Positions 6,321 to 27,315 of a stretch of 32,000 nt of DNA are shown in pieces. The notes beneath the pieces were generated by a model. The model saw nothing but the letters and a program-made list of their open reading frames with translations, was not told the DNA's origin and did no database searches. Made by a program: the position numbers and the translations under genes. Each line of letters starts with the position of its first letter. Within the stretch, counting starts at the first letter, position 1. The stretch comes from Seleniivibrio sp. (GTDB lineage Bacteria > Chrysiogenota > Deferribacteres > Deferribacterales > Geovibrionaceae), in contig NZ_JAJOIL010000032.1 of the NCBI RefSeq assembly GCF_021209385.1, positions 6,340 through 38,339 of the forward strand. The letters are read 5' to 3'.

Positions 6321-6348
6321 AAAAGATGCCGCATACACGGCATCTTTT
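6321..6348 (-). terminator. Rho-independent terminator after the OprD-type porin gene
   Basis: On the minus strand: AAAAGATGCCG, loop TGTATG, CGGCATCTTTTTTTT. An 11-bp stem including A-T pairs with a long U-run, 26 nt after the porin stop. Confidence 0.7.
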
Positions 6349-6373
6349 CAAAATAAAGCAAAAGGAGGATAAT

Positions 6374-7624: not shown

Positions 7625-7813
7625 AATACCTCCTTAAAGTATAACAAAATTCAAGTATTCATAAAACCTGCCTAATCATATAACTGATTGATATTATGTC
7701 AACTTTGTGGTGTTATTGAGCTTTATGGCTATATAATCATTTATGGTGTTTTTGGCGGCAGAAATGTGAAAGCTGTGTATTGGATGGAGGAAAGCTTATC
7801 GTCCTAAATGAAT

Positions 7814-7843
7814 TCAGGCATCAGCAGAAATGCCGATGCCTGA
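7814..7843 (-). terminator. Hairpin downstream of the cytochrome c gene (weak terminator candidate)
   Basis: TCAGGCATC (7814-7822) pairs with GATGCCTGA (7835-7843) around a 12-nt loop. The trailing sequence on the minus strand is only partly T-rich. Confidence 0.35.
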
Positions 7844-7875
7844 TGACTATAAAAAACACTACAGGGAAACGCTTG

Positions 7876-8538
7876 TTATTTAACTATTTTCTGTTTCCAG
7901 ACAAATCCCCACTGATGGCATTTTACGCAGTAGTCCTTAAAATCACCGTGCATGCTGTGGCATTTCGTACAGGTGAGGTTCGGGAAATGCGATTTATGGG
8001 GATTAGCCTTATAAGGAGCTTTGGCTGTTTTTGCCATCATCTCGTTAAAATCTCCGTGACATCCCACGCATTTTTTATGCATTTCGTCAGCTTCGTCTTC
8101 GTCGTATGTTTTGTGGCAGTCGGCACACATCAGTCCGGCATTTTTATGTGAATTTGCTAATTTTCCTGTGGTATAGAGTGAATTAAACTTTTCCGCTCCG
8201 TCTTCAGAGTCAATTTTTGCACCGCTGGCGGAATTTACCGTGATATTTCCTTCTGAATCTGCCACATGGCATGACAGGCAGGTATCTTTAACTATCTCCA
8301 TCTGAGCGAAATGGACATTATGTATTTTGCCGCCCAGTTTCGGACCTTTTCCGCCGTCCGCGTGGCAATCGAAACAGCCTTCAAATGCTGTTTTCTTCAC
8401 ATGTTCTTTCGGAAGTATCTTGCTGACACTCTCGTGGCAGTCCTTGCATCTGAATCCTATTTCCGCGGCATATCCCCATGAACAGACGAAAAGAACAACA
8501 GCGGCAATAAGGGTTAATCTATATTTATACAGAGACAT
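7876..8538 (-). CDS. Heptahaem c-type cytochrome (periplasmic or membrane-anchored)
   Basis: Seven CXXCH motifs: CKDCH, CFDCH, CLSCH, CADCH, CVGCH, CTKCH, CVKCH. N-terminal hydrophobic segment LTLIAAVVLFVCSWGYAAE. The ATG at 8538 sits 6 nt after AAGGTG; the ORF-track start at 8547 is a GTG. Confidence 0.9.
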   Translation of the reverse strand: MSLYKYRLTLIAAVVLFVCSWGYAAEIGFRCKDCHESVSKILPKEHVKKTAFEGCFDCHADGGKGPKLGGKIHNVHFAQMEIVKDTCLSCHVADSEGNITVNSASGAKIDSEDGAEKFNSLYTTGKLANSHKNAGLMCADCHKTYDEDEADEMHKKCVGCHGDFNEMMAKTAKAPYKANPHKSHFPNLTCTKCHSMHGDFKDYCVKCHQWGFVWKQKIVK

Positions 8539-8564
8539 TGTTTTCACCTTAATTAAAATATGTT

Positions 8565-8593
8565 AAAAAGCGGGCGCTCCGAAGAACGCCCGC
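8565..8593 (-). terminator. Rho-independent terminator after the OM barrel gene
   Basis: On the minus strand: GCGGGCGTTC, loop TTCG, GAGCGCCCGC, then TTTTTAA. It lies 20 nt after the stop at 8613. Confidence 0.7.
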
Positions 8594-8612
8594 AAGTCTA
8601 TAGGAGGCTGTT

Positions 8613-9509
8613 TCAGAATGAGAATACCGCTCTTACCCAGTATTTATCGCCTTCGGATCTGTTTTCAACCAAAGTCTCTTTCTGATATTTGACGTGAATA
8701 CCTATGTTTTTGTAATTGTACTGAATTGTAGGACCTACACCAAGAACCCTGCCTTTGTAATCATCAACGGTTTCGCCGTCGGATTTATCGTCAGTTATCT
8801 GCTGATAGTAGTATCCGCCAAGACCTACAGTCCAGCTGCCGAAGTGCTGTCCTGTAAAATAGTCGACGTGAAATTCCTGACCGGACTTATAGTCCGTGTC
8901 ATTGTTCTCAGTATTAAAGTCATACATGAACTTTCCGGACACTTCATATCCGCCGTCGGTAACATAGCTTATTCCGTATGCAGGCTCAAAGGTGTAATAG
9001 TTGCGGCCTATATTGGCTATGTCGTTTTTGTCGTATGCACCTGTGGGAACGTCAATATCAAGGGCTATCGCCTGATGAAGATTTTTTGAGTGCCATGAAA
9101 GATTCACGCCGACATCAATATCGCCGAGACCTGAAGCGTTATCCTTTCCGGCGGGAGTTTCCAGGTGCATATTCACAAGAGGGATCAGGGTCTGAAAACC
9201 GAGATTTCCTCCGGCGATCTGAGTTTTGGTAACATAAACAAATCTGGAAACGTCAGCCAGAACGTTTGCCTTAAAGTGGACGTCAATCTTGTCGCCGTTA
9301 TTGTCTTTAAGGGCATCCGCTGTGTAATAGTTCAGATAGTTAAGATAATAAAAGCCCGCGGGAGGAATGGCACCTGCCATAACATCCTCCGCTCCGTTTG
9401 GATATGCTCCGCCGCCGCCCTCTGTAGCAAAAGCGGAAGAACAGGGAACAGCAAACGCAGCTGTTATTACAGACATGATAATGAATTTTTTAAGTCTGCT
9501 GATTATCAT
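8613..9509 (-). CDS. Outer-membrane beta-barrel channel, MetA-pathway/phenol-degradation-like family
   Basis: Signal peptide ...AAFAVPCSSAFA. GGGGAYPNGAEDVMAGAIPPAGFYYLNYLNYY is typical of this family. Alternating beta-strand pattern and terminal ...VRAVFSF. The ATG at 9509 follows AAGGG; a GTG at 9518 is 2 nt from the flavoprotein stop. Confidence 0.7.
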   Translation of the reverse strand: MIISRLKKFIIMSVITAAFAVPCSSAFATEGGGGAYPNGAEDVMAGAIPPAGFYYLNYLNYYTADALKDNNGDKIDVHFKANVLADVSRFVYVTKTQIAGGNLGFQTLIPLVNMHLETPAGKDNASGLGDIDVGVNLSWHSKNLHQAIALDIDVPTGAYDKNDIANIGRNYYTFEPAYGISYVTDGGYEVSGKFMYDFNTENNDTDYKSGQEFHVDYFTGQHFGSWTVGLGGYYYQQITDDKSDGETVDDYKGRVLGVGPTIQYNYKNIGIHVKYQKETLVENRSEGDKYWVRAVFSF

Positions 9510-9520
9510 AACATTCACCC

Positions 9521-11041
9521 TTATTTGCCTGTTTTAATGTATTTGACAGCGTCAGCACCTGCAAGGCGTCCTGATGTTGCGGCAAAGCCGAATGCAGAAC
9601 CTGAAGCCCAGAGGGTGTATGTGTCACCGTAAAGTCCGCCGACATCACAGCCGACCACATAAAGTCCGTTAATGGCTTGGTCGTTGCTGTCGATAGCCTG
9701 CATCCTTTCGTTGATTCTGGCTCCGCCAAGAGAAACGAAATAGTAGGGCAGGACTTTAACCGCATAGAAGTTTCCGGTCTTAACGTGAGTCATTCCCCTT
9801 GTGTCTCTGTCAAACTCAGGATCAAGGTTATTGTCAATGTAAGAGTTATAGTTTTTAACGGTTGTTGTAAGAGTGGCGGGGTCAACACCTATCTGTTTTG
9901 CAAGGTCGGCTATGCTTGAGGACATAGCGACGTCTTTATTCCCTTTAGCTATTTCGCCTTTGATCTCGTCAACAAGTCCAGGGATCTTTGTTCCGAGAGG
10001 AATAAGAACGCCAAGACCGTTATCAAGACCTTTTTCGCTGAGATGTTTGACTGTTTCGTCATCGAATATAGACCAGACAAAGTGTCCGTTCTGACGCTCA
10101 ACAGCATTTCCTGCAAGCGCGAAGCTGTAAACAACGTCCTCGTCAACGATTCTCTTTCCGAATTTGTTAACCCAGAGGCTGGGCTGCCATGTCATAGCGA
10201 ACATGGGTCCGAGAGGTCTGTGGGTTCCGGGGTGCAGCATAAGACCCCATCCTTCAGTATCTGCTCCGGCAGACATAGCCATGTCTATACCGTCGCCTGT
10301 TTTTTCAAGAGGCGCTGTGGCAAAAACTGTTTTTCCGTCAAAACGTGTGTATTTTGAAACCATATCGGGGTTATTGGGAAAACCGCCTGTTGCAAGGATA
10401 ACGGCTTTTGCGTTGACAATAACTTTATTGCCTTTTGCATCCTCGCCTTCAACACCGCTGATTTTGCCGTTTTTCATGATGAGCTTTTTGCCGGGTGTCT
10501 GATAAAGAACCTTTATACCAAGCTCGTCTGCTTTTTGTACCATTGAATAGATCAGAGAAGCTCCGTGGTGTATGCCGTTTTTATCTTTCACAAGGTGCCA
10601 TGTGAAACCTTCGGTGGGAGATATTTTAACCGGATCAAACTCCACGCCCTGTTTTTTGAGCCAGTTGATGGTATTTTTTGATTCGTTGATATAGAGGTGT
10701 ACCAGTCTGGCATCAGCTCTGAAGTGGTTGAACTCCATTGAATGTTTGAAAGCTTCCTGAGGCGTAAGTCTTTCTGATTTAAGTCTGAGCTCGTCTGTTT
10801 CCACAGCGAAAAGCCCTTCCGCAAGATTCGAGCTTCCGCCCGCCATGTCCTGTTTCTCAAGAACAATTACCTTTGCTCCGTTTTCAGCGGCGGATACGGC
10901 TGCTGAAAGCCCTGATGAGCCGGCACCGACGACGACAACATCGGCGTCATAGACTTTGTCTTTCGCATATGCAGAAAAAACAAACATAAAAGACATGAAT
11001 GTAAATACGAAAGAAAGAAACTTTTTAGAAACCCTTTGCAT
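9521..11041 (-). CDS. Periplasmic (Sec-signal) FAD-dependent oxidoreductase, fumarate-reductase/flavocytochrome flavin-subunit superfamily
   Basis: Strong GGAGG RBS. Signal peptide MQRVSKKFLSFVFTFMSFMFVFSAYA with no twin arginine. Dinucleotide fold DVVVVGAGSSGLSAAVSAAENGAKVIVLEK...GGSS. The C-terminus GGLYGDTYTLWASGSAFGFAATSGRLAG differs from the canonical GGNRLGGNA motif. Confidence 0.85.
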   Translation of the reverse strand: MQRVSKKFLSFVFTFMSFMFVFSAYAKDKVYDADVVVVGAGSSGLSAAVSAAENGAKVIVLEKQDMAGGSSNLAEGLFAVETDELRLKSERLTPQEAFKHSMEFNHFRADARLVHLYINESKNTINWLKKQGVEFDPVKISPTEGFTWHLVKDKNGIHHGASLIYSMVQKADELGIKVLYQTPGKKLIMKNGKISGVEGEDAKGNKVIVNAKAVILATGGFPNNPDMVSKYTRFDGKTVFATAPLEKTGDGIDMAMSAGADTEGWGLMLHPGTHRPLGPMFAMTWQPSLWVNKFGKRIVDEDVVYSFALAGNAVERQNGHFVWSIFDDETVKHLSEKGLDNGLGVLIPLGTKIPGLVDEIKGEIAKGNKDVAMSSSIADLAKQIGVDPATLTTTVKNYNSYIDNNLDPEFDRDTRGMTHVKTGNFYAVKVLPYYFVSLGGARINERMQAIDSNDQAINGLYVVGCDVGGLYGDTYTLWASGSAFGFAATSGRLAGADAVKYIKTGK

Positions 11042-11122
11042 CTTAATCCTCCTTATTTTTAAGGACAGCGTCCTCTATAAGAAAGATTATATTGTTACGG
11101 GCAATTGAACCATTGGGCTGAT

Positions 11123-11151
11123 TACCGTTTCTTATACCTGTAAATACTTAG
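11123..11151. promoter_or_regulatory. Three TAC-heptamers (TACCGTT, TACCTGT, TACTTAG) upstream of the flavoprotein gene; candidate NarL-family regulator sites
   Basis: Heptamers start at 11123, 11135 and 11145 (spacing 12 and 10 nt), 82-110 nt upstream of the ATG at 11041. The same words recur at 13550-13588. Confidence 0.25.
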
Positions 11152-11214
11152 CCGAACCGAGTCTTTCCCCTAGGCTCCACCGTAAAAAACTCCATACGGC
11201 TACGGTAAATCTAC

Positions 11215-11883
11215 CTAAGATATCATATCCTGAAAATGCGACCACTTGATAGCATACTGGGAGAGTTCGGCTGCGTTTTTGAGCCCCAGCTTGTGTTTCA
11301 TGCTCTCCCTGAAAGCGTCTATAGTCTTAACGCTGAGATTCAGATTCTCCGCAATCTGCTTGGATGTAAAACCGTTGCCTATCATCTGAAAAACCTGAAA
11401 TTCCCTGTCGGACAAAGTCTCGACGACGTCCTTATCGGGAGATTCCTTTGCACTCATCGCCTTGTTAAGAACATATTCTGTCATTCTGGCACTGAGATAT
11501 ATCTTCCCTTTCAATATCCTTCTGATTGCTTCAATGATAACTATGGGTTTTTCGCTCTTCATCACATATCCGGAAGCTCCGGCTCTGATGCACCGTTCGG
11601 CGAAAATAAGCTCTTCATGCATTGAAAGCACAAGAACAAATACGGAAGGGTACCTGGCTTTTATGCTTTTTATGATATCCAATCCGTTTGAGGCACCGAG
11701 AGAAAGATCAACTATGGCAACATCAGGCTCTATTTTAAACAGAAGATTTACGGCAGAAAGAGCATCCTCGGCGGCTCCGCATACCTCCATATCCGATTCG
11801 TGATTTATAAGTCTTACAAGCCCTTCTCTGACGATGGCGTGGTCATCCACAATAAAAACTTTGCATGCGTTCTGAATACTCAT
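11215..11883 (-). CDS. Response regulator, NarL/FixJ family (receiver + LuxR-type HTH)
   Basis: KVFIVDDHAIVREGL...VAIVDLSLG receiver motifs. C-terminal LSDREFQVFQMIGNGFTSKQIAENLNLSVKTIDAFR is a GerE/LuxR HTH. Confidence 0.9.
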   Translation of the reverse strand: MSIQNACKVFIVDDHAIVREGLVRLINHESDMEVCGAAEDALSAVNLLFKIEPDVAIVDLSLGASNGLDIIKSIKARYPSVFVLVLSMHEELIFAERCIRAGASGYVMKSEKPIVIIEAIRRILKGKIYLSARMTEYVLNKAMSAKESPDKDVVETLSDREFQVFQMIGNGFTSKQIAENLNLSVKTIDAFRESMKHKLGLKNAAELSQYAIKWSHFQDMIS

Positions 11884-11893
11884 TGTAATCCTC

Positions 11894-13402
11894 TTATGGA
11901 GTAAGTTTAATTATTACAGAGATGGACGTTCCTCTGTCTGCTTTGGAGTTTACCTCTATGTCCGCCCCTATGATGGAAGCTCTGTATTTCATTATTCTAA
12001 GTCCCTGACCGCTTGTAATTAAATCAGGTTTAAGTCCTATTCCGTCATCGGAAACTTCCAGACGCAGAAAACCGGACTTCATTTTAAGACACAATTTAAT
12101 ATTGCTGCACCTGCTGTGCTTGACGGCATTGTTAACAGCTTCTCTCGCAATGAAATACAGATGATTGGAAAGCTCATAGTCATCAACGTAAACCGGATGA
12201 AGACATTTGTATCTGCACTTTATCCCGTACAGTTTTTCAATGGCGGACGCCATGCTTTCAAGGGTACTCATAAGCCCTGCCGAATCTTCGCTTACAGGGC
12301 AAAGTCCGTTTATTATATTGCGCATGGTGGTCTGCGCTTTTTTTGTGTTCTCAACAATATCCTCAGCAGTATTTGCCGCTTCGGGATATTTATCTTTCAG
12401 TTCCTGATAAAGCACTGTTGAAATGAAAGATATACCTGTCAAAACCTGTCCCAGACCGTCATGGAGATCGTTGCCGATTTTCCTGCGCTCGCTGCTTGCA
12501 AGCTCAAGTATCTGGCGCTCCATCTCTTTTCTCTCAGTTATGTCACTTATGACCTGAACAAGACCGGTAAATTTTCCAAATTCGTCAAAAACAGGATGCG
12601 TCTGAATAAAAAACACCATTCCTGCGGCTCTGACTTCTCCTGACAGCGGTATTTTTGAACTTTGCGGGCGACCGACAGGACATCCTTTACAAAACCCCTT
12701 CTCTTTGTGACATATCTCATAGCAGAATTTCCCTTTGATCTCTTCCGCCGGAATTCCGGAAAGAACTGAGGCTACTCTGTTCGCCCAGATGACCTGCATA
12801 TTAACATTATAAAAAATAATACAGTCAGACATTACATCCAGAATAAGGGCTTTTTCCCTCTCAGACCTCTTCAGCGCTTCGTCTGCAATAACCTTGTCCG
12901 TTATATTCAGAATTATTCCCCTCGCCTGAACGAAATTGCCATCGGCGTCATAAACCGCTTTGCCGTAAAGCACAACGGTGATCACATCTCCATTTTTACG
13001 TTTCATCTTCCATGTTAAGTTTTTGGCAATGCCCGTCCTCTTAAAAACCGGAAAAATTGCTTCATGCATATCAATACCTTCTGCCAGAAGATCATGAAAC
13101 CGCATAGACAGGAACTCTTCCCTCGAATATCCGAGGAAAGTCTCAAAGCCTTTATTAACGTCCACAAGCTGGCTGTCGGCATCCAGAACTATTTCGCCCA
13201 TAGGCACATCGTCCAGAAGAAGCATCTTTCTGCGCTCGTCATTAAGCAGCTCAATATAAGCCGACTTAACCATGGATACCTCCTGACGGAGATTCCTTAT
13301 CTCTTCCTTCGCCTTTTCAAGTTCCGCCGAATAGTCGCTGGTTACGTTCATAAAGCCTCCGGACGGTGAATTATGACTGATGTCCATAAATCTACTATAC
13401 AT
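11894..13402 (-). CDS. Soluble multi-PAS sensor histidine kinase, HisKA_3 (NarX/NreB-like) type, with a 4-Cys motif
   Basis: No TM segment. At least two PAS-like modules. C227-x3-C231-x6-C238-x2-C241 (CYEICHKEKGFCKGC). H-box GNDLHDGLGQVLTG and a C-terminal HATPase domain. The start is uncertain: ATG at 13402, 13387, or 13351; the last lies 4 nt after GGAGG. Confidence 0.85.
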   Translation of the reverse strand: MYSRFMDISHNSPSGGFMNVTSDYSAELEKAKEEIRNLRQEVSMVKSAYIELLNDERRKMLLLDDVPMGEIVLDADSQLVDVNKGFETFLGYSREEFLSMRFHDLLAEGIDMHEAIFPVFKRTGIAKNLTWKMKRKNGDVITVVLYGKAVYDADGNFVQARGIILNITDKVIADEALKRSEREKALILDVMSDCIIFYNVNMQVIWANRVASVLSGIPAEEIKGKFCYEICHKEKGFCKGCPVGRPQSSKIPLSGEVRAAGMVFFIQTHPVFDEFGKFTGLVQVISDITERKEMERQILELASSERRKIGNDLHDGLGQVLTGISFISTVLYQELKDKYPEAANTAEDIVENTKKAQTTMRNIINGLCPVSEDSAGLMSTLESMASAIEKLYGIKCRYKCLHPVYVDDYELSNHLYFIAREAVNNAVKHSRCSNIKLCLKMKSGFLRLEVSDDGIGLKPDLITSGQGLRIMKYRASIIGADIEVNSKADRGTSISVIIKLTP

Positions 13403-16912: not shown

Positions 16913-18142
16913 TTATTTGCCGTTAAAGGCAAATTTATAGGTCACATAAAATCTTGTATCGGTATAATCCTCGCCGCCGTCGATTTCAATTGACGCGTAT
17001 CTGGCGCGCAGACCGATACCGTCAAGCTTTCCGGAGAACGCATACTGAATATTGTAATCCGTTTCTGACATATCCTTTCCGGTGGATGCCGGAACGTCAT
17101 ACTGTCCGTAGAAAACGTATGCGCTGAGTCCTTTCACACCGACTTTCGTAAAATCATATGCAAGTTTGGCGGCATAGGCATCCTCTTCAGCCCTGCCTGC
17201 GGCAAGCACCTGCTGGATGATGGCTTTGTCATCACCCCAGGGCGCAAGGAGCGTATCATCACCTGTCTTTGCATAAAATCCGGTGAATGTAACCCCGTAT
17301 GCACTGACTCCGGCATTCAGACCAACCTGATCGGTATCAAGCTCGCCGTTAAGCTCGTCACCCTGAGACTTCTGATAAAGCAGCGACGGTGCAGAGAACA
17401 GAGTAAAATCGCCGAACGTCTTGCTCAGAGATACTTTGAAATAGGTTTCCCTGAACACGTCGGGCATGGTGTAGAACCATCCCTGAGCTGTAGATTTAAA
17501 TGACTGAACAGGCAGAACGTAGCTAAGTCCGCCGATTATCATCGGTTTTTCATCGTCAATGGACGAAGCACCGCCCGGTTCTGCGGCGACGGCATCCGAC
17601 ATTGAGATAAAATCGTCATCTGTCCATCCCATGGAATCGGTTATGTAGTATGCGGAAGCTGTCAGACCGCTCACGGAATTATTCACCACTGAAAGTCCTT
17701 TGTAGCTTCTGGGAATCATACGCAGGTCGTGTCTGTCCAGAAACGGAGTGCTTATCTCCTGTGCGCCGTATTTAACGGTGGTTTTGAACCATTCGCCCTG
17801 AATATATGCCTCCTGAAGTCTGGTCATGCTTTCGTGGTCGCCGTCGTCGCCTTTTTTCAGAATGCCGTATACCGCGTCGTCCTCATCGCTGAACATATCG
17901 TTGACGGTTGCAAAACCCAAGCCGAAAGATATGCCGTAAAGCGGCGCTGTTTTGAAATAGAAGAGACCGCCCACAGCATCATCTCTTCTGGTATCGGTAG
18001 AGCCGTCAAAGTCTCTGGAAAAATCCAACACTCTGATCTCTCCCCTTGCAGTGCCCTCTGAAAACATGGTCTGCAGGCTGTCTGCGGCATAAGCGCAGGA
18101 AAACGAAATAATAAGAACTGACATTAAAAGAATCCGTTTCAT
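16913..18142 (-). CDS. OprD (Occ) family outer-membrane porin, 409 aa, paralogue of 6374-7624
   Basis: The ATG at 18142 is preceded by GGAGGAACG. Signal MKRILLMSVLIISFSCAYA. Motifs GEIRVLDFSRDFDG, GISFGLGFATV and VKYGAQEISTPFLDRHDLRMIPRSYKGLSV align with the first porin. The longer ORF reaching 18313 is rejected. Confidence 0.75.
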   Translation of the reverse strand: MKRILLMSVLIISFSCAYAADSLQTMFSEGTARGEIRVLDFSRDFDGSTDTRRDDAVGGLFYFKTAPLYGISFGLGFATVNDMFSDEDDAVYGILKKGDDGDHESMTRLQEAYIQGEWFKTTVKYGAQEISTPFLDRHDLRMIPRSYKGLSVVNNSVSGLTASAYYITDSMGWTDDDFISMSDAVAAEPGGASSIDDEKPMIIGGLSYVLPVQSFKSTAQGWFYTMPDVFRETYFKVSLSKTFGDFTLFSAPSLLYQKSQGDELNGELDTDQVGLNAGVSAYGVTFTGFYAKTGDDTLLAPWGDDKAIIQQVLAAGRAEEDAYAAKLAYDFTKVGVKGLSAYVFYGQYDVPASTGKDMSETDYNIQYAFSGKLDGIGLRARYASIEIDGGEDYTDTRFYVTYKFAFNGK

Positions 18143-18166
18143 CGTTCCTCCTTGTAGTAAAAACCC

Positions 18167-18183
18167 TTCCGCTAAAAGCGGAA
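18167..18183 (-). other. Short intercistronic hairpin between the NapH-like and porin genes
   Basis: On the minus strand: TTCCGCT, loop TTT, AGCGGAA, then GGGTTTTTAC. A 7-bp stem with a 3-nt loop; a weak attenuator at best. Confidence 0.3.
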
Positions 18184-18186
18184 AAT

Positions 18187-18939
18187 CTATTTTCTGAATT
18201 TTATGGAACCTGTGGGGCATTTCTCCGCACACTCCATACATGACGTACATTTCTCCGTTATGTCTCCGCCTCCGTCGGTTATCTTTACGCTTTCCGGACA
18301 GGTTTCCTTGCATACGGAACAGGTGCCGCCATTACCGAGAATACAGGTGCTGCGGTTCACAGCAGGTCTGAATTTAGGTCCCGGTATCTTTGACACCAGA
18401 GAGAACAGAGCGCCTATGGGGCAGAAACCTGAACACCATCTCTTAAACAGGATCACTTCCGCCGCTATCACCACCGGAAAGACAATAAGTGTCAAACCCG
18501 CTTCCTGAACGGCAAAGAGCTTAAAGACTGCGAACAGAAACCCGAAAAACAGCCCTATTGGGCAAAAGAGACAAAAAACCGGAAATTTCAAAAAGAAAGA
18601 AAGCACTACCGAAAGACCAAGTACCAAGTACGGAAGATAGCGCATATATATGTTTTCTGTGGAGGGACATCTGCTCCCGCTGCATTTTCTCACAAGCGAA
18701 GTGGAACAGAACCATCCACAGAAGAATCTGCCGAAAAAATATACCGCGATAAGACCTGCAAACACCCATGCAGCCATTTTCCAAGGTATACTGCGTGATG
18801 CCGCCGACACTTCCAGAAAGCCCACCGGACAAATATTGCAGAACGTTCCGGGAATGGTATTTCCCGCCGTAGCCGCCATCACCGATACCGCAGCACCTAT
18901 GAGTACATATTTTCTTATTGCCGAATACTTCAGCTTCAT
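18187..18939 (-). CDS. NapH/MauN-like membrane polyferredoxin (quinol dehydrogenase membrane component)
   Basis: Four TM helices with Cys motifs CPVG, FFCGWFCS, FCLFCPIG and WCSGFCPIG. The C-terminal soluble domain has two 4Fe-4S motifs (CSVCKETCP, CTSCMECAEKCP). Its start overlaps the upstream stop as ATGA. Confidence 0.75.
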   Translation of the reverse strand: MKLKYSAIRKYVLIGAAVSVMAATAGNTIPGTFCNICPVGFLEVSAASRSIPWKMAAWVFAGLIAVYFFGRFFCGWFCSTSLVRKCSGSRCPSTENIYMRYLPYLVLGLSVVLSFFLKFPVFCLFCPIGLFFGFLFAVFKLFAVQEAGLTLIVFPVVIAAEVILFKRWCSGFCPIGALFSLVSKIPGPKFRPAVNRSTCILGNGGTCSVCKETCPESVKITDGGGDITEKCTSCMECAEKCPTGSIKFRK

Positions 18940-19547
18940 TTTGTGTCTCTCTTTTTATGCAGTGACGGATCTCTGGGCAAAGTTCCCGCCTGTCTGGGCT
19001 TAACCAGTATGCCTTTGCCTTTTGCCGACTTCCTTATGGAAGTGGACGGGCATTTAAGCTCACATATTCCGCAGCCGTTACATTTTTCCGGTTCAACAAC
19101 GGGTCGCTTGTGCTCGTCGAGGTAGATAGCTTTTTCTGGACATTCGTCAACGCATACAGTGCACCCAACCCAGTCCCATGCAACGCAGTCCTTCTCAATT
19201 ATCACAGCGGCACCTATGTCAAGCGTCGCCTCCGTAACGGGTAAAAGAGCGCCCGTGGGACACACCAGCGAACATTTAAGGCACGAGTTGCAGTAGGATT
19301 TTCTGAATGACACCACCGGTGTGTTCATCCGCTTTATCCCTTCTGCAAACGACAGCGGAAAGATCACCCTTTTCGGGCAGACCTGAATACACCGCTGACA
19401 CCTGATGCATTTTTCCAGAAAACGTTCTTCACCGAGAGCGCCAGGCGGTCTTAAAAAGGACCTCCCCCCTTCTGACGCTTCGGATGTGCTGAACGTTACA
19501 AGCGAAAGAACCATCAGTTTGTTAAATTCTCTTCTGCTGTATTTCAT
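18936..19547 (-). CDS. NapG/MauM-like Tat-exported poly-[4Fe-4S] ferredoxin
   Basis: Tat motif SRREFNK and the LRPPGA box. Four Cys clusters: CIRCQRCIQVCP, CNSCLKCSLVCP, CTVCVDECP, CNGCGICELKCP. Confidence 0.75.
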   Translation of the reverse strand: MKYSRREFNKLMVLSLVTFSTSEASEGGRSFLRPPGALGEERFLEKCIRCQRCIQVCPKRVIFPLSFAEGIKRMNTPVVSFRKSYCNSCLKCSLVCPTGALLPVTEATLDIGAAVIIEKDCVAWDWVGCTVCVDECPEKAIYLDEHKRPVVEPEKCNGCGICELKCPSTSIRKSAKGKGILVKPRQAGTLPRDPSLHKKRDTK

Positions 19548-19559
19548 TTTAAGAACCTG

Positions 19560-20369
19560 TCAGTTAAAAAACATCCTGCCCTCTATCACGTTTGAAACAG
19601 GCGGAAGCTGGTTTATAAGAATACAGACGGCAAAGACACCCAGAACAACCGCCGCACGGCAGGTCTTTACGAGATAAGCCTCTTTCCGCATGCAGGCTAT
19701 GCTAAGCATCAGCGCCGGTAATGCGGCTGTCAGAAGCAGACAGAGGACAAACAGCGCTGTCAGATCACCGCCGAAAAACCTTTCAGCAGTAAGTATCCTG
19801 TCAGGATACTGCATCAAAGCAATCCGCACGAAAAACAATATTTGTATCAGAAGGTTCACTGCTGTCACACCTGTTATGGCAAGCAGAACCCTGCCCTTCG
19901 TCTCATTTGAAAAAAGGAAGAAAACAGCGGCTGTAAACGACACCGACAGCAGATAGATATAAGACAACGGGCTGTTGAGCGCGTGCCGTGTTGTTACCGC
20001 GTAGAAACGGAAAAGACAGAATATCACCGCCGCAAGAAACAGGGCGGAGAAGACCGGATAGGACATTATCTTCACCGATTTTCTGAAATAGAAAAAAATC
20101 GAAACAAAAAAGACCGCTATCTGCGACAGAACCGCTGTGCTGAACCCTGTCTCTGGTTTTGCCAGCAGGCTTATGAGGTTCGCCGGATCGTTCAGACCGA
20201 AAGCCACCGCACCGACCGCCGCAAAAGAGCAGGCGGCTGAAAGCAGATAGAGTTTTCTGCGGCACTCTGAGCCTTCGCTTAAAGCGGACTCGGCGCATGT
20301 ATAAAAAAATGTACAGGTTCCTGCCAGTGAAAAGAACAGGAACAGGGTCATGTTCCAATTGGTATGCAT
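19560..20369 (-). CDS. DmsC-like (or NrfD-like) integral membrane anchor subunit, 269 aa
   Basis: About 8 TM helices. The N-terminus HTNWNMTLFLFFSLAG resembles the DmsC HEWPLMIFT start. The C-terminal EGRMFF resembles the DmsC GRGVFY end. GGGGAGG RBS. Confidence 0.55.
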   Translation of the reverse strand: MHTNWNMTLFLFFSLAGTCTFFYTCAESALSEGSECRRKLYLLSAACSFAAVGAVAFGLNDPANLISLLAKPETGFSTAVLSQIAVFFVSIFFYFRKSVKIMSYPVFSALFLAAVIFCLFRFYAVTTRHALNSPLSYIYLLSVSFTAAVFFLFSNETKGRVLLAITGVTAVNLLIQILFFVRIALMQYPDRILTAERFFGGDLTALFVLCLLLTAALPALMLSIACMRKEAYLVKTCRAAVVLGVFAVCILINQLPPVSNVIEGRMFFN

Positions 20370-20384
20370 AATAACCTCCCCTGC

Positions 20385-21059
20385 TTACGCAGAGTACCTT
20401 CCTGCAAACTCTTCGATGAGTTCCATATCCATTTTGATGTATTGTTCAGTAACCTTTGCCAGACCTTTATAAAAGTTTGTCATTGAATGTTTTTCCACAT
20501 CATCACAAAATTTGGGAACCCAGTTTATCAGGTGTTTCTGAATAAACTGTTTCTGTTCGTTCAACAGCATTCTGAACGCGGCAATATCACCTTCGTCCAT
20601 AGCCTGCAGGGTTTTACCGCAAAGTACCGCCATAAATTCCAGTTCAATGTATATGTGGTCTTCGGGAATGGTGAACGGTCCGTCGGGCTGAAGCTGATGT
20701 TCGCGGAGCTTCATGAGCATCTGGTCTCTGGCATCCTGCATGATGAGTTTTTTGGGGCTGGTATAGACAGATTCGTAAGGGTACGCCGCCTTATCGGACT
20801 CAATGATTCCTGCGCCCAGAAAGACCTTCGCATAGTCGATGGCAAGCTCCGTAACAGGGTCAATGTACGGATGAAAAAAGAAGCTTTTCATAAGGGAGTA
20901 TCCCTCCTGAATATCTTCACCCTCTCCGCACTGATAGTCCGCATCTTTCAGGCAGGCATATATTTTCTCGTCAACTTCGGTTCTGTAAAGCTGTGAAAGG
21001 AAACGGTACATATTCTCTCTGTGGGACATTATTTCTGTTTGTTCTGTTACTTGTTTCAT
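20385..21059 (-). CDS. TorD/DmsD-family redox-enzyme maturation chaperone
   Basis: The N-terminal RENMYRFLSQLYRTEVDEK pattern and the size (224 aa) are typical. It lies between the FeS and anchor genes of a molybdoenzyme operon. Confidence 0.7.
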   Translation of the reverse strand: MKQVTEQTEIMSHRENMYRFLSQLYRTEVDEKIYACLKDADYQCGEGEDIQEGYSLMKSFFFHPYIDPVTELAIDYAKVFLGAGIIESDKAAYPYESVYTSPKKLIMQDARDQMLMKLREHQLQPDGPFTIPEDHIYIELEFMAVLCGKTLQAMDEGDIAAFRMLLNEQKQFIQKHLINWVPKFCDDVEKHSMTNFYKGLAKVTEQYIKMDMELIEEFAGRYSA

Positions 21060-21082
21060 AGTTCACACATCCGTTTTAATGA

Positions 21083-21105
21083 GGGGCAGGCGACACACCT
21101 GCCCC
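21083..21105 (-). other. Intercistronic stem-loop between the FeS-subunit and chaperone genes
   Basis: GGGGCAGG (21083-21090) pairs with CCTGCCCC (21098-21105) around a 7-nt loop. No clean U-run follows, so it is probably an mRNA stability or processing element. Confidence 0.35.
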
Positions 21106-21127
21106 GAATATAAGAGAACCCAAAGAC

Positions 21128-21730
21128 CTACTTGCTCTGGAAGAAAGTCCAGCTTTTCCTGTTCTGCCATTTTGCAGTTTTGGGATGGAGAATATACCTT
21201 GTTGCGGGGTGGTTTCCTTCATCCGGCAGGCTGTGAGCGTTCTTTCCTGCGTTGGCGATCTTTTTGGAAACTTCGCTGTTAGGATCGTTCACATCTCCAA
21301 CTATCCTCGCTTTCGCGCAGCATGCCTTAACACATGCGGGTTTATCGCCTGCTTCAAGCAGGTGTTCGCACATATGGCATTTCTCAACGTACTTGGCTTC
21401 CTCGTTGAATTTACGGGCGCCATAGGGACAAGCAGAGATGCATGAAAGACATGCGATGCATTTTTTGCTGTCGATAAGTATTACGCCGTCCTTTGCAACA
21501 TATGATGCGCCTGTTGGGCAGACTGCCACACAGGGTGCATCCTTGCAGGACTGGCACATGGCGGGCAGGTAATACATTTCAAGGTTCGGGAACTTTCCTG
21601 TCGGTCCCATGGTAAATACTTTGTTGTACTGCACGCCGAGGGCAACGTTGTTCTCGTTTTTGCACGCCACTTCGCATGAGTAGCATCCGATGCAGCGGTC
21701 AAGGTCAATTACAAGTGCTGTCTTTTTCAT
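21128..21730 (-). CDS. Four-cluster [4Fe-4S] electron-transfer subunit, DmsB/PsrB/NrfC family
   Basis: Cys clusters CIGCYSCEVAC, CQSCKDAPCVAVCP, CIACLSCISACP and CHMCEHL...PACVKACC. The ATG at 21730 is 9 nt after GGAG; the ORF-track start at 21736 is a TTG. Confidence 0.9.
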   Translation of the reverse strand: MKKTALVIDLDRCIGCYSCEVACKNENNVALGVQYNKVFTMGPTGKFPNLEMYYLPAMCQSCKDAPCVAVCPTGASYVAKDGVILIDSKKCIACLSCISACPYGARKFNEEAKYVEKCHMCEHLLEAGDKPACVKACCAKARIVGDVNDPNSEVSKKIANAGKNAHSLPDEGNHPATRYILHPKTAKWQNRKSWTFFQSK

Positions 21731-21732
21731 GT

Positions 21733-24413
21733 TCAAAGCTCCACAGTTTTAGTCGGTTCAGAGACTTTAGGCATCCATGGTTCAAACTGTTCGGGTTTTT
21801 GCCAGATACCTTTCGGTGCGCCGGAAGCTTTGGATATTTTCACCTGATAGCCTCTGAGTGTGTATGTTCCGCAGATGTCATTGAACGGCGCAGTCTGTTT
21901 ACTGAGTACGTTCACGTTCATTTCGCGCCAGCCGTGTGTGGCTGAGTTCAGTGTTTCGGGGTTCCAGAAGCGTTCCATATAAACAACGCCTTTCGCCATT
22001 CCTTCGGTGACAAGGGCTTTCGCCTGAATTTTACCTCTGGCGGATTCAACCCATACCCAGTCGCCCTGAGATACGCCGTATTTCTTAGCATCCATAGGGT
22101 TGACCCATATCTCTGCGTAGGGCTTTATTTCCCTGAGATAAGGAATGTTTCTGAGCGTCGTATGGTGCCAGAAAGGCAGACGTCCGTTTGTCATTACCAG
22201 CGGGAATTTCTTACCCACTGAGTTATAAGGGTTTTCTGACGGTGTCATGTAATATGGCAGCGGGTCATAGTCCTTGGACGCGGGAGACTGAGGAAACGTT
22301 GTGAACGGTTTGCCTGTACGTCCGAGAACAATAAGGCTTTCCATATATCCTTCGACTTTGCCTGTGGGTGTGTTGAACCCTTTCACCTTTCCTGTTTTCG
22401 GGTCGGTTTCTTTATAAACGTAGTAGCGTCTGAATCTGTTCATGGGAATATATTCAAACGGACATTTCGCTTTATACTCTTTCCATGTCATGCCGAAGAA
22501 GCTTGTCCATTCGTCAAGCTGATGTTCGTATGTATCGAAATACGGTGATTCGGGCGCTGTATTCGCTTTGACAAAAGACCTCTTGCAGTTCTCATGTCCA
22601 AGCTCGCCGCAGCGTTTTGCTATTCTCGCCCATATCCATGCTTCGTTCACTGTTTCGTAAAGGTGTGTTGTCGCCTGACGTGCAAACATCTGGTTGAACG
22701 ATGCAGTGATGAAGTCTGTTTCAAGCCACTCTGTGACGGGAAGCAGATAATCTGCATAGGCGGAGAAGGATGTCGGGTACATATACATATGCACGATGAG
22801 TTCAAGGTTGCTCATGCCTTTAACCCATGCGCCGGCATTCGCCACGGTGCCGAGTTTGTTGCCTGAACGCTCAAGCCACGCTTTCATCTTATAGGGTTTC
22901 CCTGTGGTCATAGCGTCAAGAATGGCTGTGGGCTGGGCTATCCACCAGTGGAGCATACCTTTGTGTTCCTTACTGCCGAGACGTTTGTTCAGCTGTTTCT
23001 CGGAAAGGAAACCTTTCAGTTTTGAAGTTCTCAGTACACCGCCGACACCTTTGTCCTCATAACGCTGGAGCATAACGCCGGGTTTCTCAAAGTTGCCCAT
23101 GAGGATATTGAGAACCGCGGACATCTGTGCCGCCTGTGCGGAGTTGGGAGTCTGGTCAGTTGCAACACCCAGAGCCACGCTTGAAGGGGTGTCTTTGGTG
23201 TATATTTTTATGGCTTTTTCAATTGATTTGGGGTTAAGCCAACATTCTTTGCCGCCTTTTTCCAGTGTCCAGGGTTCCGCTCTCTCTTTAAGGAGCTGAA
23301 ATCCGGGTTTGCACTGGATGCCGTTTACTGTGAAAGTGCCTTCGAGAGCGGGTTCAAGATTGTCATCATATGGGAAAGGCAGAGGTTTTGCCGAATTGGT
23401 CTTTTTATCCCATACGACAAACGTTTTATCATCGGCACCCTTGAACAGTTCATTGCCCTTGATAATCATTTTTGTTTTGGTGTTAACAAGGAAAGGCAGG
23501 TTTGACCATCTTTTTACGAAATCTGCGTCATAGAGTTTGTTAGCTATTATGTAGCGTATCCATGTGAGACCGAGTGCAACGTCTGTGCCGGGTCTGATGG
23601 GAAGCCATACGTCAGCTTTTGAAGCGTCGGCAGTGAAACGCGGGTCGATTACCACTGTTTTCATACCTCTCGCTCTGTTTTCAACCAGTACCCTGCCCGC
23701 CTGGGAAGGTCCGCTGAACGCGGGAGCTGTTCCCCAGAGAACAAGGCTTTTCGCTTTTTTCTCTTTATAGAAATACAGTTCAACGCCGTTTGAATCGCCA
23801 AGGCTGGTGTCGGCACCTGATATGTTCCGTTGTTTCCGTATGCCAGACCGTAGATAAGCGTTCTGGGCATATAACATTGTGCGGCGCCCGGCTCGAACCA
23901 ATTGGGAGTATCGAAAGTATCGCAGAAACGGCAGGCACCGTTAAAGTTGGGGTTACCGCCGCCGCCTGTTGATGCGAATACCGATTCAGCACCGTATTTA
24001 GAGCGGATTTCCATCAGTTTATGGGCTATTTCGTCGATAGCTTCTTCCCATGACACGCGTTTCCATTTGTTCTCACCGCGCTGACCAACCCTTTTCATCG
24101 GATATTTAAGTCTGTTGGGGTGATAAAGCGCCTGAATACCGGAAAGACCTTTAACGCAGAGTGCGCCTTCGCTTCTGCCGAATTCCGGGTCGCCTTCGAT
24201 CTTGATAACACGTCCGTCGCGGACATGGGCAAGAACACCGCAATCCGCCGTACAGTTGCGGCAGTTTGTGCGGATGATCTTAACGCCTTCGTTTGCAGCG
24301 GCATGAGCCGACGGAACAAGACTTGTTCCGGTCAGCGAACCCATGGAGATAACGGTACCGGCAAAAGCTGTCGCTTTCAGGAAGTCCCGTCGGTTAATTC
24401 TGAAACGATCCAT
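21733..24413 (-). pseudogene. Tat-exported molybdopterin (Mo-bisPGD) oxidoreductase catalytic subunit, Psr/Phs/Arr-like with Cys ligand; the reading frame is broken by a -1 shift near 23815-23830
   Basis: The N-terminal ORF (24413 to 23661) has the Tat motif NRRDFLK, the FS0 motif CRNCTADC-x27-C and the candidate Mo ligand GAAQC (TGT at 23874-23876). The rest (to 21733) contains ...SLVLWGTAPAFS, VVIDPRFT, IRPGTD and the C-terminal barrel PLVMTNGRLPFWHHT...GDWVWVESARGKI in the frame displaced by -1. The two ORFs overlap over 23661-23901. Confidence 0.8.
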
Positions 24414-24461
24414 TATTTTCCTCCAAAAATTAATATAAAAGCTATAAGAACAATTTATGAC

Positions 24462-25031
24462 TTAAGAAGAATACGCCTGCACAGCGGCAAGCCCGTCCTG
24501 TGCTGTCTTCCACTTAACATCCCACCTAAGGACACCCGCCTCTTCCAGCTCGCTTATAAAATAGCTGGCAAGGATGTTCTCACTCGCCATCACTTCGTTT
24601 CCTACGAGAATATCCTCTATTTCATCAAGTGTTTTTGGTTCCGAACATGATATGAGTATGGAGAGGTAGATGTCTTTATATGCGGAATCCCTTTTAAAGA
24701 GTTCATCTACAAGCGTGGCAGGGCAGGACGCAGACGCAATCTCTCTGCCCTCTTCGGTTGTCTGAAGCAGGATATTTCCTTCGCCTTCGTCTGTAACTGT
24801 CAGTCCTCCGTTTTCAATCAGGATATTCATCAGCACCTGAGGTGAATGAAAACATGATCTTCCTGACAGAAGAGCCTTTATCTCCTGCTCAACCTCAGAA
24901 AGACGGCGCGGTGTTCCGCAGAAACGGAGTATCCCGTAAAGAACCGTTTTGTAACCGGGTTCAGATTCTATCTTGCGGGCAAGCGAACTGTCTGTCTGTT
25001 CATCCAGTTCGTCGATCTCGTTTTGTATCAT
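24462..25031 (-). CDS. Hypothetical acidic 189-aa protein with two internally similar winged-helix-like halves; first gene of the sigma-54 operon
   Basis: ATG 6 nt after GGGGGA. The repeat is visible by eye: GILRFCGTPRRLSEVEQEI...LIENGGLTV versus ILISCSEPKTLDEIEDIL...LEEAGVLRW. I recognise no family. Confidence 0.55.
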   Translation of the reverse strand: MIQNEIDELDEQTDSSLARKIESEPGYKTVLYGILRFCGTPRRLSEVEQEIKALLSGRSCFHSPQVLMNILIENGGLTVTDEGEGNILLQTTEEGREIASASCPATLVDELFKRDSAYKDIYLSILISCSEPKTLDEIEDILVGNEVMASENILASYFISELEEAGVLRWDVKWKTAQDGLAAVQAYSS

Positions 25032-25107
25032 GGCATCCCCCTGTAACTTTCAGCCGTTATTTTTTTAAGACTGCTTTCAAGGTTGGTTTCAACCTTATGC
25101 CTGTAAT

Positions 25108-25123
25108 TGCAAAGGTGATGCCA
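25108..25123 (-). promoter_or_regulatory. Sigma-54 (-24/-12) promoter
   Basis: The minus strand reads TGGCAT-CACCT-TTGCA against the consensus TGGCAC-N5-TTGCA, with correct GG/GC spacing. It lies about 77 nt upstream of the ATG at 25031 and faces a divergent sigma-54 activator gene. Confidence 0.65.
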
Positions 25124-25278
25124 TTTCATAAAAAATGATTTTTATTATATTTAAAAATAAGTTACATTATTGATGCGTTATTCTCATGTCTTACCCGTGA
25201 GAAACGTCTCATTTTTGATACATAATTTTTCTATAAAAACAGGCGGATATTTTGTGCTATGTTTGATAAGAGGTTTAT

Positions 25279-27267: not shown

Positions 27268-27276
27268 AGTTAAAGT

Positions 27277-27306
27277 AAGGCGGGGGTCACGGAAAACCCC
27301 CGCCTT
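27277..27306. terminator. Bidirectional terminator between the activator gene and livF
   Basis: AAGGCGGGGGT (27277-27287) pairs with ACCCCCGCCTT (27296-27306) around an 8-nt loop. Confidence 0.7.
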
Positions 27307-27315
27307 TGTGAAGCG

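Follow-up and report, generated by a model that had tools for sequence, protein, structure and literature searches.

The question raised by this locus is how a molybdoenzyme works, and on what kind of substrate, when its genes lie together with those of two different electron-transfer modules and of an outer-membrane porin. The locus was found in a stretch of 32,000 nucleotides (nt) from Seleniivibrio sp. (NCBI RefSeq assembly GCF_021209385.1, contig NZ_JAJOIL010000032.1, positions 6,340 to 38,339 of the forward strand), which is called the window here and whose first letter is position 1. Eight genes encode, in order, a 189-aa protein (unk189), the catalytic subunit of an enzyme with a molybdenum bis(pyranopterin guanine dinucleotide) cofactor (Mo-bisPGD), a four-cluster iron-sulfur (FeS) protein, a TorD-family chaperone, a membrane anchor, a NapG-like ferredoxin, a NapH-like membrane FeS protein and an OprD-type porin. 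We believe, with moderate confidence, that this is a substrate-inducible operon for a reductase complex which is exported by the pathway of twin-arginine translocation (Tat), is docked at the membrane and belongs to the catechol-dehydroxylase/acetylene-hydratase sector of the Mo-bisPGD enzymes. In the sequenced genome itself, the catalytic gene is interrupted by a frameshift.

The genes are all co-directional on the minus strand, from 25031 down to 16913, as read from the listing of open reading frames (ORFs) and their translations (Table 1). The spacers are 48 nt between unk189 and the catalytic gene, 2 nt (TGAacATG) between the catalytic gene and the FeS gene, 68 nt before the chaperone gene, 15 nt between the chaperone and anchor genes, 12 nt between the anchor and NapG-like genes, and 44 nt between the NapH-like and porin genes. 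The stop of the NapG-like gene and the start of the NapH-like gene share a 4-nt ATGA overlap. A first-pass annotation, made from the sequence alone, had described this tightly packed series of eight genes; its order and spacing were borne out, whereas its single ORF for the catalytic subunit was not, and of the two ATGA overlaps it listed, the junction sequences leave one between real genes. Its seven domain assignments all hold at the superfamily level by Pfam and NCBIfam profiles, that of the anchor through profile-profile comparison. The window proteins were compared by tblastn with 80 genome loci encoding the enzyme (relatives' loci, numbered L001 and so on, L001 being a metagenomic relative with 98.5% identity), together with Pfam-annotated public contigs and targeted searches. 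The genes of a major facilitator superfamily transporter and a choice-of-anchor-I protein adjoining the operon are not conserved with it in the relatives (tblastn) and were not counted as its parts.

The catalytic pieces matched Molybdop_Fe4S4 (PF04879, 56 bits), Molybdopterin (PF00384) and Molydop_binding (PF01568, 79 bits), all above the cut-offs, and the alignment shows the FS0 motif CxxCxxxC...C, as in the Mo/W-bisPGD (dimethyl sulfoxide reductase) superfamily. The N-terminal piece carries the Tat motif RRDFLK and a Pfam TAT_signal match. An intact orthologue stayed below every NCBIfam equivalog cut-off tested: PhsA (297 of 694 bits), DmsA (172 of 1600), ArrA (109 of 1600), TtrA (136 of 1750), YnfE (183 of 1675) and NapA (134 of 904). 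Its best match in the PDB was acetylene hydratase (2e7z, E 7.5e-61), followed by PsrA. With phmmer, it scored 278 bits against Dadh, 277 against Cadh and 224 against Hcdh, the catechol dehydroxylases of Eggerthella lenta, and 209 against acetylene hydratase; Salmonella PhsA reached 190, PsrA 176-181 (Wolinella PsrA 176) and other PDB entries at most 132. Reference sequences came from the alignment deposited with PMC7028382, and the comparison spans the references obtained. In a neighbour-joining (NJ) tree of 846 trimmed columns, the family was monophyletic in 100 of 100 bootstraps and sister to Dadh/Cadh/Hcdh in 90; acetylene hydratase was included in the same group in 95, and the family was joined with Psr/Phs in none. 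The catalytic subunit is closer to these dehydroxylases and acetylene hydratase than to the other characterised bis-MGD (bis-molybdopterin guanine dinucleotide) enzymes compared. Moreover, Cys180 is aligned with Cys141, the metal ligand of acetylene hydratase, and in the alignment the C-x-x-P-R motif around it is common only to the family and Dadh/Cadh/Hcdh. On these sequence comparisons, we place the subunit in no named reductase family and in the Dadh-like (catechol dehydroxylase/acetylene hydratase) sector.

The family is compact: over 19 proteins drawn from different phyla, the mean column identity is 72%. In GTDB, the nearest genomes with the enzyme are metagenome-assembled genomes (MAGs) of Deferribacterales, at 82% and 73%. 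By exact match, the window proteins belong to Seleniivibrio sp. (Deferribacteraceae), and one flanking transporter falls into a cluster with S. woodruffii at 90% identity or more. A Clostridium ljungdahlii homologue is listed among putative dehydroxylases in PMC7028382; the C. ljungdahlii protein P0061, presumably the same one, is 59% identical to the intact orthologue. The substrate is probably a small aromatic or organic compound; the flanking genes in the relatives gave no clue to it.

An inorganic chalcogen or metalloid reductase, acting on polysulfide, thiosulfate, selenate/selenite or arsenate, might be expected in this genus, since Seleniivibrio woodruffii respires selenate and arsenate. 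The best NCBIfam profile of the catalytic subunit is indeed PhsA, and those of the FeS subunit are ArrB, TtrB and NrfC. However, the scores given above for PhsA, ArrA and YnfE are far under the cut-offs, Dadh and Cadh outscored PhsA and PsrA like for like, and the tree never joined the family with Psr/Phs. The family is also common in gut Clostridia and Sutterellaceae, the sensor of the regulator is a cytoplasmic GAF-PAS domain, and the operon has an OprD-type specific channel. We consider the inorganic reductase very unlikely. A Salmonella paper on "Xsr" was also considered as a description of this system and set aside as not relevant, for it deals with DmsA paralogues.

The E. lenta systems, which consist of a bis-MGD enzyme, a 4Fe-4S protein and a membrane anchor (PMC7028382), come nearest to the window enzyme among characterised systems, in the scores as in the tree. 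Both they and the window enzyme have the Tat signal, the FS0 cluster motif and the ligand-position Cys within C-x-x-P-R, with genes for a four-cluster FeS protein and a DmsC-type anchor alongside, and a remote homologue of the 189-aa protein lies upstream of such a gene cluster in an Eggerthellaceae contig. In contrast, the window enzyme belongs to a separate, tight orthologous group, its host is diderm, so that the complex would be periplasmic and served by a porin, and a NapG/NapH-like module is added. The E. lenta genes have LuxR-type membrane regulators, whereas the window operon appears to be under sigma-54 control. Acetylene hydratase of Pelobacter acetylenicus has the same Cys ligand position, but it is a cytoplasmic, monomeric, non-redox tungsten enzyme of 730 aa without FeS partner, anchor or Tat signal.

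The first-pass annotation had described one Mo-bisPGD subunit and overlooked that its gene is read as two out-of-frame ORFs, 24413-23661 and 23901-21733. In the alignment with L001, a single 1-bp gap lies near 23818, where GGG has become GG (CAGGGTG to CAGGTG), so that the window gene has 2681 nt and the L001 gene 2682 nt. The L001 gene is intact and encodes 893 aa, and the gene of P0001 is intact too. In the N-terminal piece (23661-24413), residues 1-199 are authentic and identical to the L001 protein, and 51 out-of-frame residues follow; the FS0 Cys motif and the Cys180 ligand position are on this piece together with the Tat signal. The C-terminal part (21733-23817, minus strand) corresponds to residues 200-893 of the intact protein. 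Molybdopterin is matched on both pieces, Molybdop_Fe4S4 on the N-terminal one and Molydop_binding on the C-terminal one. The NCBI annotation of the MAG (Seleniivibrio sp.) also gives two pieces, of 250 and 681 aa. Programmed frameshifting at 23818 was rejected, as the site has no slippery heptamer and the relative's gene is plainly in frame.

The whole catalytic gene differs from that of L001 by 48 synonymous and 2 non-synonymous changes, and the C-terminal part by 33 and 2; the ratio of non-synonymous to synonymous polymorphism (pN/pS) is 0.00-0.02 on both sides of the lesion. Because the differences are almost all synonymous, the lesion appears to have arisen very recently or else to be an error. 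If it came from sequencing or assembly, the operon would be fully functional in this organism; this reading agrees with a lesion of one base in a short G run, with the low pN/pS across the gene, with the intactness of all other genes and with the origin of the window from a MAG. We nevertheless regard it as the less probable case: the NCBI annotation has the same deletion, as does the Logan assembly of SRR12390699, made independently and with 100% identity to the window along 11.4 kb, the deletion is probably present in the reads, and GG in place of GGG is atypical of short-read homopolymer errors. In the sample search, the deletion allele was found in no sample other than SRR12390699. We believe that the enzyme of the sequenced genome is probably inactive. 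As a separate observation, this deletion is the only uncompensated indel relative to L001 in the 11.4 kb. Nucleotide alignments of the activator gene and of the 189-aa gene with L001 each show two gap openings that cancel out and keep the frame; either compensated indels or artefacts of the alignment might account for them.

The subunits expected beside such an enzyme are encoded next to it. The FeS subunit, of DmsB/PsrB type, matched Pfam Fer4_11 (80 bits) and shares 30% identity with E. coli DmsB (E 1e-31), and its gene follows the catalytic gene in essentially all of the 80 loci. The chaperone, of the kind that proofreads Tat export and inserts the cofactor, belongs to the TorD/DmsD family (Nitrate_red_del, PF02613, 102 bits, cut-off 22) and remains below the NCBIfam TorD equivalog (105 bits, cut-off 132). 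The 269-aa anchor, with about seven predicted hydrophobic segments, had been called DmsC-like. It has no direct match in NCBIfam and, at E values as high as 1, none in Pfam, DmsC (PF04976) and NrfD (PF03916) included. PF04976 (E 1e-13 to 1e-14) and PF03916 are matched by syntenic membrane proteins from Sulfurospirillum, Sporomusa and others; in their alignment (n=9), five pass a Pfam cut-off, four with both PF04976 and PF03916 and one with PF03916 only. Comparison of the Deferribacterales-type anchor profile with the profile of these proteins by hhalign gave a probability of 98.9% (E 1.3e-17, 255 columns). The anchor is polytopic, syntenic with the A and B subunits and related to bona fide DmsC/NrfD members, and on this transitive homology we regard it as a divergent DmsC/NrfD-type anchor; the DmsC-like label thus stands by this route, not by direct profile match. 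As in DmsABC, PsrABC and PhsABC, the operon combines an A subunit (Mo-bisPGD, Tat), a B subunit with four clusters, a haem-free C subunit of the DmsC/NrfD type and a TorD/DmsD-family chaperone. It differs from them in a catalytic subunit that is under all equivalog cut-offs and does not cluster with Psr/Phs or DmsA, in an anchor too divergent for Pfam, and in the extra NapGH-like module and porin.

This extra module consists of two proteins. The NapG-like protein has the Tat motif SRREF and four [4Fe-4S] Cys motifs, and its gene lies next to one of NapH type. Its identity to E. coli NapG is 36% (E 4e-24) and that to E. coli NapF 31% (E 2e-19), and its NCBIfam scores are under the cut-offs for NapG (NF007012, 87 of 269 bits) and MauM/NapG (TIGR00397, 81 of 179 bits). 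The NapH-like protein matched Fer4_5 (PF12801, 41.5 bits, cut-off 22), carries the motifs CNICP, CLFCP and CSGFCP followed by the C-terminal 4Fe-4S motifs C-x7-C-x2-C-x3-CP and CxxCxxCxxxCP, and scored 50 of 213 (NapH/MauN) and 46 of 234 bits against the NapH models (TIGR02163/NF007013). Its similarity to E. coli NapH covers only 81 aa of the C-terminal FeS domain, at 26% identity. Nor is the rest of a Nap system present: the NapA score is that given above, and no NapB/NapC cytochrome or NapD gene is found in the operon. These scores indicate that the pair belongs to the NapG and NapH superfamilies and is not orthologous to the Nap proteins, so the earlier NapG/NapH assignments stand at the superfamily level and fail at the curated cut-offs.

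The first-pass annotation also took NapGH to be normally attached to NapAB. This is too narrow: in Sulfurospirillum multivorans, the dehalogenase PceA has a NapGH-like pair linked to it (PMC4585668), and NapH-like proteins have been described as modular transmembrane electron-transfer units (PMC8238504). The window pair resembles NapGH of E. coli and Wolinella, the pceA-adjacent pair and the NapH-like systems in combining a Tat-exported four-cluster ferredoxin with a polytopic CxxCP FeS protein, in the overlap of the two genes and in the recruitment of the module to a periplasmic terminal reductase. Unlike Nap, it co-occurs with a DmsC-type anchor, and in relatives cytoplasmic NAD(P)H/FeS modules are fused to the pair or come after it. 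Unlike NosR/PceC-type proteins, it has no flavin mononucleotide (FMN)-binding domain.

The presence of a DmsC-type anchor together with a NapG/NapH-type module in one operon, which had been thought unusual, is not a one-off. The catalytic, FeS, anchor, TorD, NapG and NapH genes occur together in about 28 diderm loci, among them Deferribacterales, Sulfurospirillum, Sporomusa, Sutterellaceae, Shewanella and others, and the layout is conserved across several phyla. In Deferribacterales, including the window, and one Geopsychrobacteraceae genome, the set is catalytic, FeS, TorD, anchor, NapG and short NapH. Sulfurospirillum, Telmatospirillum, Acidobacteriota and Sporomusa have catalytic, FeS, anchor, TorD, NapG and NapH genes and a cytoplasmic polyferredoxin of 300-410 aa; a polyferredoxin with NapG and NapH was also found in Geopsychrobacteraceae. 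In 12 loci (10 of Sutterellaceae, Shewanella yunxiaonensis and Turicimonas muris), the C-terminus of the NapH-like protein is fused to Fer4_20 and Pyr_redox_2 domains, a GltD-like NAD(P)H oxidoreductase, and a polyferredoxin gene follows. Finally, 38 Clostridial loci have catalytic, FeS and TorD genes, then an AsrA-like polyferredoxin (Fer4_22) and a PyrK/AsrB-like NAD(P)H flavoprotein (NAD_binding_1, DHODB_Fe-S_bind), and no membrane protein. The Tat motif of the C. ljungdahlii catalytic subunit is degenerate (NRSDFL), and we infer that the Clostridial orthologues are cytoplasmic. The genes beside them are akin to the AsrA/AsrB input module of anaerobic sulfite reductase; an AsrAB-type module is not in the window and bears only on NAD(P)H as a donor for the enzyme family. 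A further observation concerns cofactor and export genes: in the Geopsychrobacteraceae-type operon, a gene for MoaA, a radical-SAM protein of molybdenum cofactor biosynthesis, stands after napH and before the polyferredoxin gene (L007 16301-17353; L094 16427-17730), and L094 also has a TatA/B/E gene at this site, so that cofactor synthesis and, in L094, export genes have been recruited into the same operon. In the literature, nothing was found that names this system, nor the conserved gene combination, the NapH-NAD(P)H fusion or the accessory 189-aa protein.

The C-terminal clusters of E. coli NapH lie in the cytoplasm. An NAD(P)H-binding domain can function only there, and for this reason we infer that electrons pass from the cytoplasmic side through NapH and NapG to the periplasmic enzyme in this family. 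The first-pass annotation had proposed instead that the DmsC-type anchor and the NapGH-like pair are two independent quinol dehydrogenases, for different quinones or a redox loop, on one periplasmic reductase. The best NCBIfam matches of the two proteins are NapG- and NapH-like, the NapG-like protein has the identity to E. coli NapG given above, the NapGH-like pair has been proposed as the link between menaquinol and PceA (PMC4585668), and the NapH-like protein of the window has no fused cytoplasmic redox domain. We nevertheless think two quinol modules less likely. Both proteins stay well short of the curated cut-offs, E. coli NapH is resembled in its C-terminal FeS domain only, the oxidoreductase fused to NapH in the 12 related loci is workable only in the cytoplasm, cytoplasmic polyferredoxins stand beside NapH elsewhere, and the Clostridial orthologues take NAD(P)H modules.

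The NapGH-like pair, with the polyferredoxin of the relatives, might also serve maturation or reactivation and deliver no catalytic electrons, akin to the roles proposed for NapF/NapH, NosR and MauMN. The NapG-like protein is nearly as close to E. coli NapF as to NapG, NCBIfam also returned NapF and MauM/NapG matches, and the catalytic, FeS and anchor set is already complete, which is enough in E. lenta-type systems (PMC7028382; L089). We think this improbable, as the Tat signal makes the NapG-like protein periplasmic, unlike NapF, and the NAD(P)H modules are the only redox-partner genes at the Clostridial loci, which argues for a role in catalytic electron supply.

The regulation of the operon was considered next to its enzymology. 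An element of the -24/-12 type, TGGCATcacctTTGCA, lies 76 nt upstream of the first ATG, beside the divergent gene of a sigma-54 activator. Alone, this type of element is not above chance: two matches in the window were found against 1.19 expected, and 32 of 100 shuffles reached two. An equivalent element stands upstream of the orthologous operon in 12 loci (L001, L005-L009, L013, L016, L018, L019, L021 and L023), from Deferribacterales, Geopsychrobacteraceae, Telmatospirillum and Sporomusa. Because of this conservation in 12 relatives, there is good evidence that TGGCATcacctTTGCA is a real sigma-54 promoter element, and the promoter that had been placed ahead of the series is retained. With the GG-N10-GC element upstream and an enhancer-binding protein adjacent, the operon has the features of sigma-54 dependence.

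The activator has Sigma54_activat (220 bits), AAA_lid_14 and HTH_8 domains in Pfam and no receiver domain. Its best NCBIfam models are PrdR and DhaR, both below their cut-offs, and residues 53-300 match the GAF-PAS sensing domain of DhaR (PDB 4lrx, E 3e-10), which is compatible with the AcoR type proposed earlier. Full-length orthologues adjoin the operon in Deferribacterales (44-68% identity), Geopsychrobacteraceae (57%) and Sporomusa (34-38%). A scan of 25124-25278 for activator sites found only AT-rich, low-complexity inverted repeats; a short palindrome, TGAGAcgttTCTCA, was noticed only by eye. A molybdenum cofactor riboswitch or other known RNA in the leader was rejected, as no Rfam match was found in the window. 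The public gene calls also contain a 33-aa ORF (25032-25133, minus strand) with an ATGA overlap with the 189-aa gene; it is probably spurious, since its start lies upstream of the -24/-12 element, which it thus spans.

The last gene of the series encodes, as the first-pass annotation had read it, a porin of the OprD family (PF03573, 93 bits, cut-off 25, profile positions 71-393); the protein has a signal peptide, and its N-terminus is MKRILLMSVLIISFSCAYA. The listed ORF of 466 aa overlaps napH, and the real start is that of the MKRILL signal peptide at 18142. OprD orthologues follow napH in L001, L005, L006 and L095; in L005 the porin start overlaps the napH stop and the hairpin found before the window porin is absent, and in L013 the porin gene is the first behind the sigma-54 promoter. 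Overall, porin genes adjoin the operon in three lineages and represent two families: OprD in Deferribacterales, OprD in a Sulfurospirillum/proteobacterial pair, and Porin_4, directly upstream, in Sutterellaceae and T. muris. These recurrent porins support a functional link to substrate entry across the outer membrane, which had been suggested from the single operon.

The 189-aa protein is cytoplasmic and without a Pfam or NCBIfam match. Its AlphaFold2 model has two winged-helix repeats (mean predicted local distance difference test score 86), and Foldseek gave weak matches to PadR/LmrR/MarR winged-helix proteins (E about 5e-3), from which no function follows. A single-sequence homology search returned only the protein itself and one close relative, and the family was widened by a profile built from locus-derived homologues. 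In Deferribacterales, Sulfurospirillum, Telmatospirillum and Acidobacteriota, the gene of a member stands directly upstream of that for the catalytic subunit; in Eggerthellaceae-type contigs, remote members are encoded immediately upstream of molybdoenzyme or TorD genes. The family is small and lacks a Pfam domain, and the protein, with its predicted tandem winged helices, seems to be a family-linked accessory. In one Eggerthellaceae MAG (L089 6642-9416), the molybdoenzyme gene downstream of the remote homologue was called in two pieces of 361 and 555 aa, which may be another frameshift or a read-through of selenocysteine or stop.

The data show the genes and their order, the placement of the enzyme in its family, the conserved layout and promoter, and the frameshift. 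Beyond this, we propose that the system works as follows. A small organic compound, most likely aromatic or phenolic, would enter across the outer membrane through the OprD-type channel and be reduced in the periplasm, at the Cys-ligated molybdenum centre of the catalytic subunit; if Dadh is a guide, the reaction would be a reductive dehydroxylation. The four-cluster FeS subunit would feed electrons to the catalytic subunit, and the divergent DmsC-type anchor would hold it at the membrane, as a dock and possibly as a menaquinol link. A second wire into the FeS subunit would be formed by the NapH-like membrane protein together with the NapG-like ferredoxin exported by Tat. We favour seeing in this pair a transmembrane conduit from the cytoplasmic side, where the source is NAD(P)H or ferredoxin in relatives, and not a duplicate quinol dehydrogenase. 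Expression would be turned on by the divergent activator of the DhaR/AcoR type in response to a cytoplasmic signal, and the TorD-type chaperone and the tandem winged-helix protein may assist maturation or control.

Several points weigh against this proposal. The position of Dadh Arg506 is not Arg in the family, and because of this the chemistry may differ from catechol dehydroxylation. Identity to Dadh/Cadh is only about 26-33%, and the orthologous group has no member of known substrate. NapGH of E. coli and Wolinella act as quinol dehydrogenases (PMC4585668). The Deferribacterales NapH-like proteins are short (250-280 aa), and neither an NAD(P)H domain nor a polyferredoxin is encoded in cis; for this reason the cytoplasmic-donor argument is only carried over from relatives, and such a route in Seleniivibrio would be an extrapolation. 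The hairpin before the porin gene could partly uncouple porin expression, and the frameshift bars asserting any function for this particular strain.

Most of what is known of molybdoenzymes of the catechol-dehydroxylase type comes from Actinobacteria of the gut, and for the majority of homologues no substrate has been assigned. The locus defines a tight orthologous group in Deferribacteres, Campylobacterota, Negativicutes, Acidobacteriota, Shewanella, gut Sutterellaceae and many gut Clostridia, with three versions of the wiring: the NapGH-like pair with a DmsC-type anchor, the fusion of NapH to an NAD(P)H oxidoreductase, and the cytoplasmic AsrAB-like input. The enzyme class (complex iron-sulfur molybdoenzymes, Dadh-like sector) and the modular NapH-type part are already known. 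More speculatively, the locus might stand for a widespread, unnamed class of periplasmic Dadh-like molybdoenzymes that are driven not, or not only, by quinol but by cytoplasmic NAD(P)H or ferredoxin through a NapH-NapG wire, with a DmsC-type dock. The membrane potential would assist the export of electrons, low-potential electrons would serve difficult reductions, for example the dehydroxylation of poorly activated aromatics imported by a dedicated porin, and the 189-aa protein would be a new family-specific factor of maturation or control. If the NapGH-like pair does export NAD(P)H/ferredoxin electrons, this would be a new way to power periplasmic molybdoenzymes and a concrete case in which genetics could test what the cytoplasmic FeS clusters of NapH-type proteins do, which has long been unclear. 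The substrate might be approached through the porin that recurs beside the operon, through its own regulator and through the sigma-54 promoter, with relevance to polyphenol and xenobiotic turnover in guts and sediments. Users of this genome should note that the annotation splits the catalytic gene into two fragments and that this gene is probably inactive.

Table 1. Features of the molybdoenzyme operon and of the neighbouring cassette, in window positions
Feature	Position	Strand	Basis
189-aa protein (unk189)	24462-25031	minus	ORF listing and translation
Mo-bisPGD catalytic gene	24413-21733	minus	ORF listing and translation; split by frameshift
Four-cluster FeS protein, 200 aa from ATG at 21730	21730-21128	minus	ORF listing and translation
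TorD-family chaperone	21059-20385	minus	ORF listing and translation
269-aa membrane protein (anchor)	20369-19560	minus	ORF listing and translation
NapG-like ferredoxin	19547-18936	minus	ORF listing and translation
NapH-like membrane FeS protein	18939-18187	minus	ORF listing and translation
OprD porin, 409 aa from MKRILL	18142-16913	minus	Pfam OprD and signal peptide
Divergent sigma-54 activator, 662 aa	25279-27267	plus	Pfam Sigma54_activat
Sigma-54 -24/-12 element TGGCATcacctTTGCA	25123-25108	minus	one mismatch to TGGCAC-N5-TTGCW
Terminator-like hairpin	18185-18165	minus	nine-pair stem and T-run
Frameshift site, catalytic gene	23817-23819	minus	alignment with L001
HisKA_3/GerE two-component system	11215-13402	minus	neighbouring cassette
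Tat-type FAD_binding_2 flavoprotein reductase	9521-11041	minus	neighbouring cassette
Phenol_MetA_deg outer-membrane channel	8613-9518	minus	neighbouring cassette
Multihaem c3-type cytochrome	7876-8547	minus	neighbouring cassette
Second OprD porin	6374-7624	minus	neighbouring cassette
TctC-family binding protein	5316-6281	minus	neighbouring cassette

Some observations were made around the operon. A contig in NCBI that is labelled Sphaerochaeta sp. (100,730 bp; P0001/P0122) encodes the whole region with about 98% protein identity, and the 189-aa protein on it is only 85% identical to the window version. The Sphaerochaeta label of this contig is probably a binning error. L001 has an extra gene of 692 aa (1579-3657) with weak P-loop NTPase matches between the activator gene and a livF-like gene; it is absent from the window (27268-27315), which is a strain-level insertion or deletion.

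A 380-aa ORF on the plus strand (4173-5315) matched no Pfam family at E values as high as 1. Adjacent to the operon, a second respiratory cassette occupies window positions 5316-13402 on the minus strand (Table 1). Shewanella yunxiaonensis (L087) has a similar cassette of flavoprotein, cytochrome c3 and OprD genes beside its molybdoenzyme operon, and a dedicated outer-membrane channel for each reductase cassette may be a general design.

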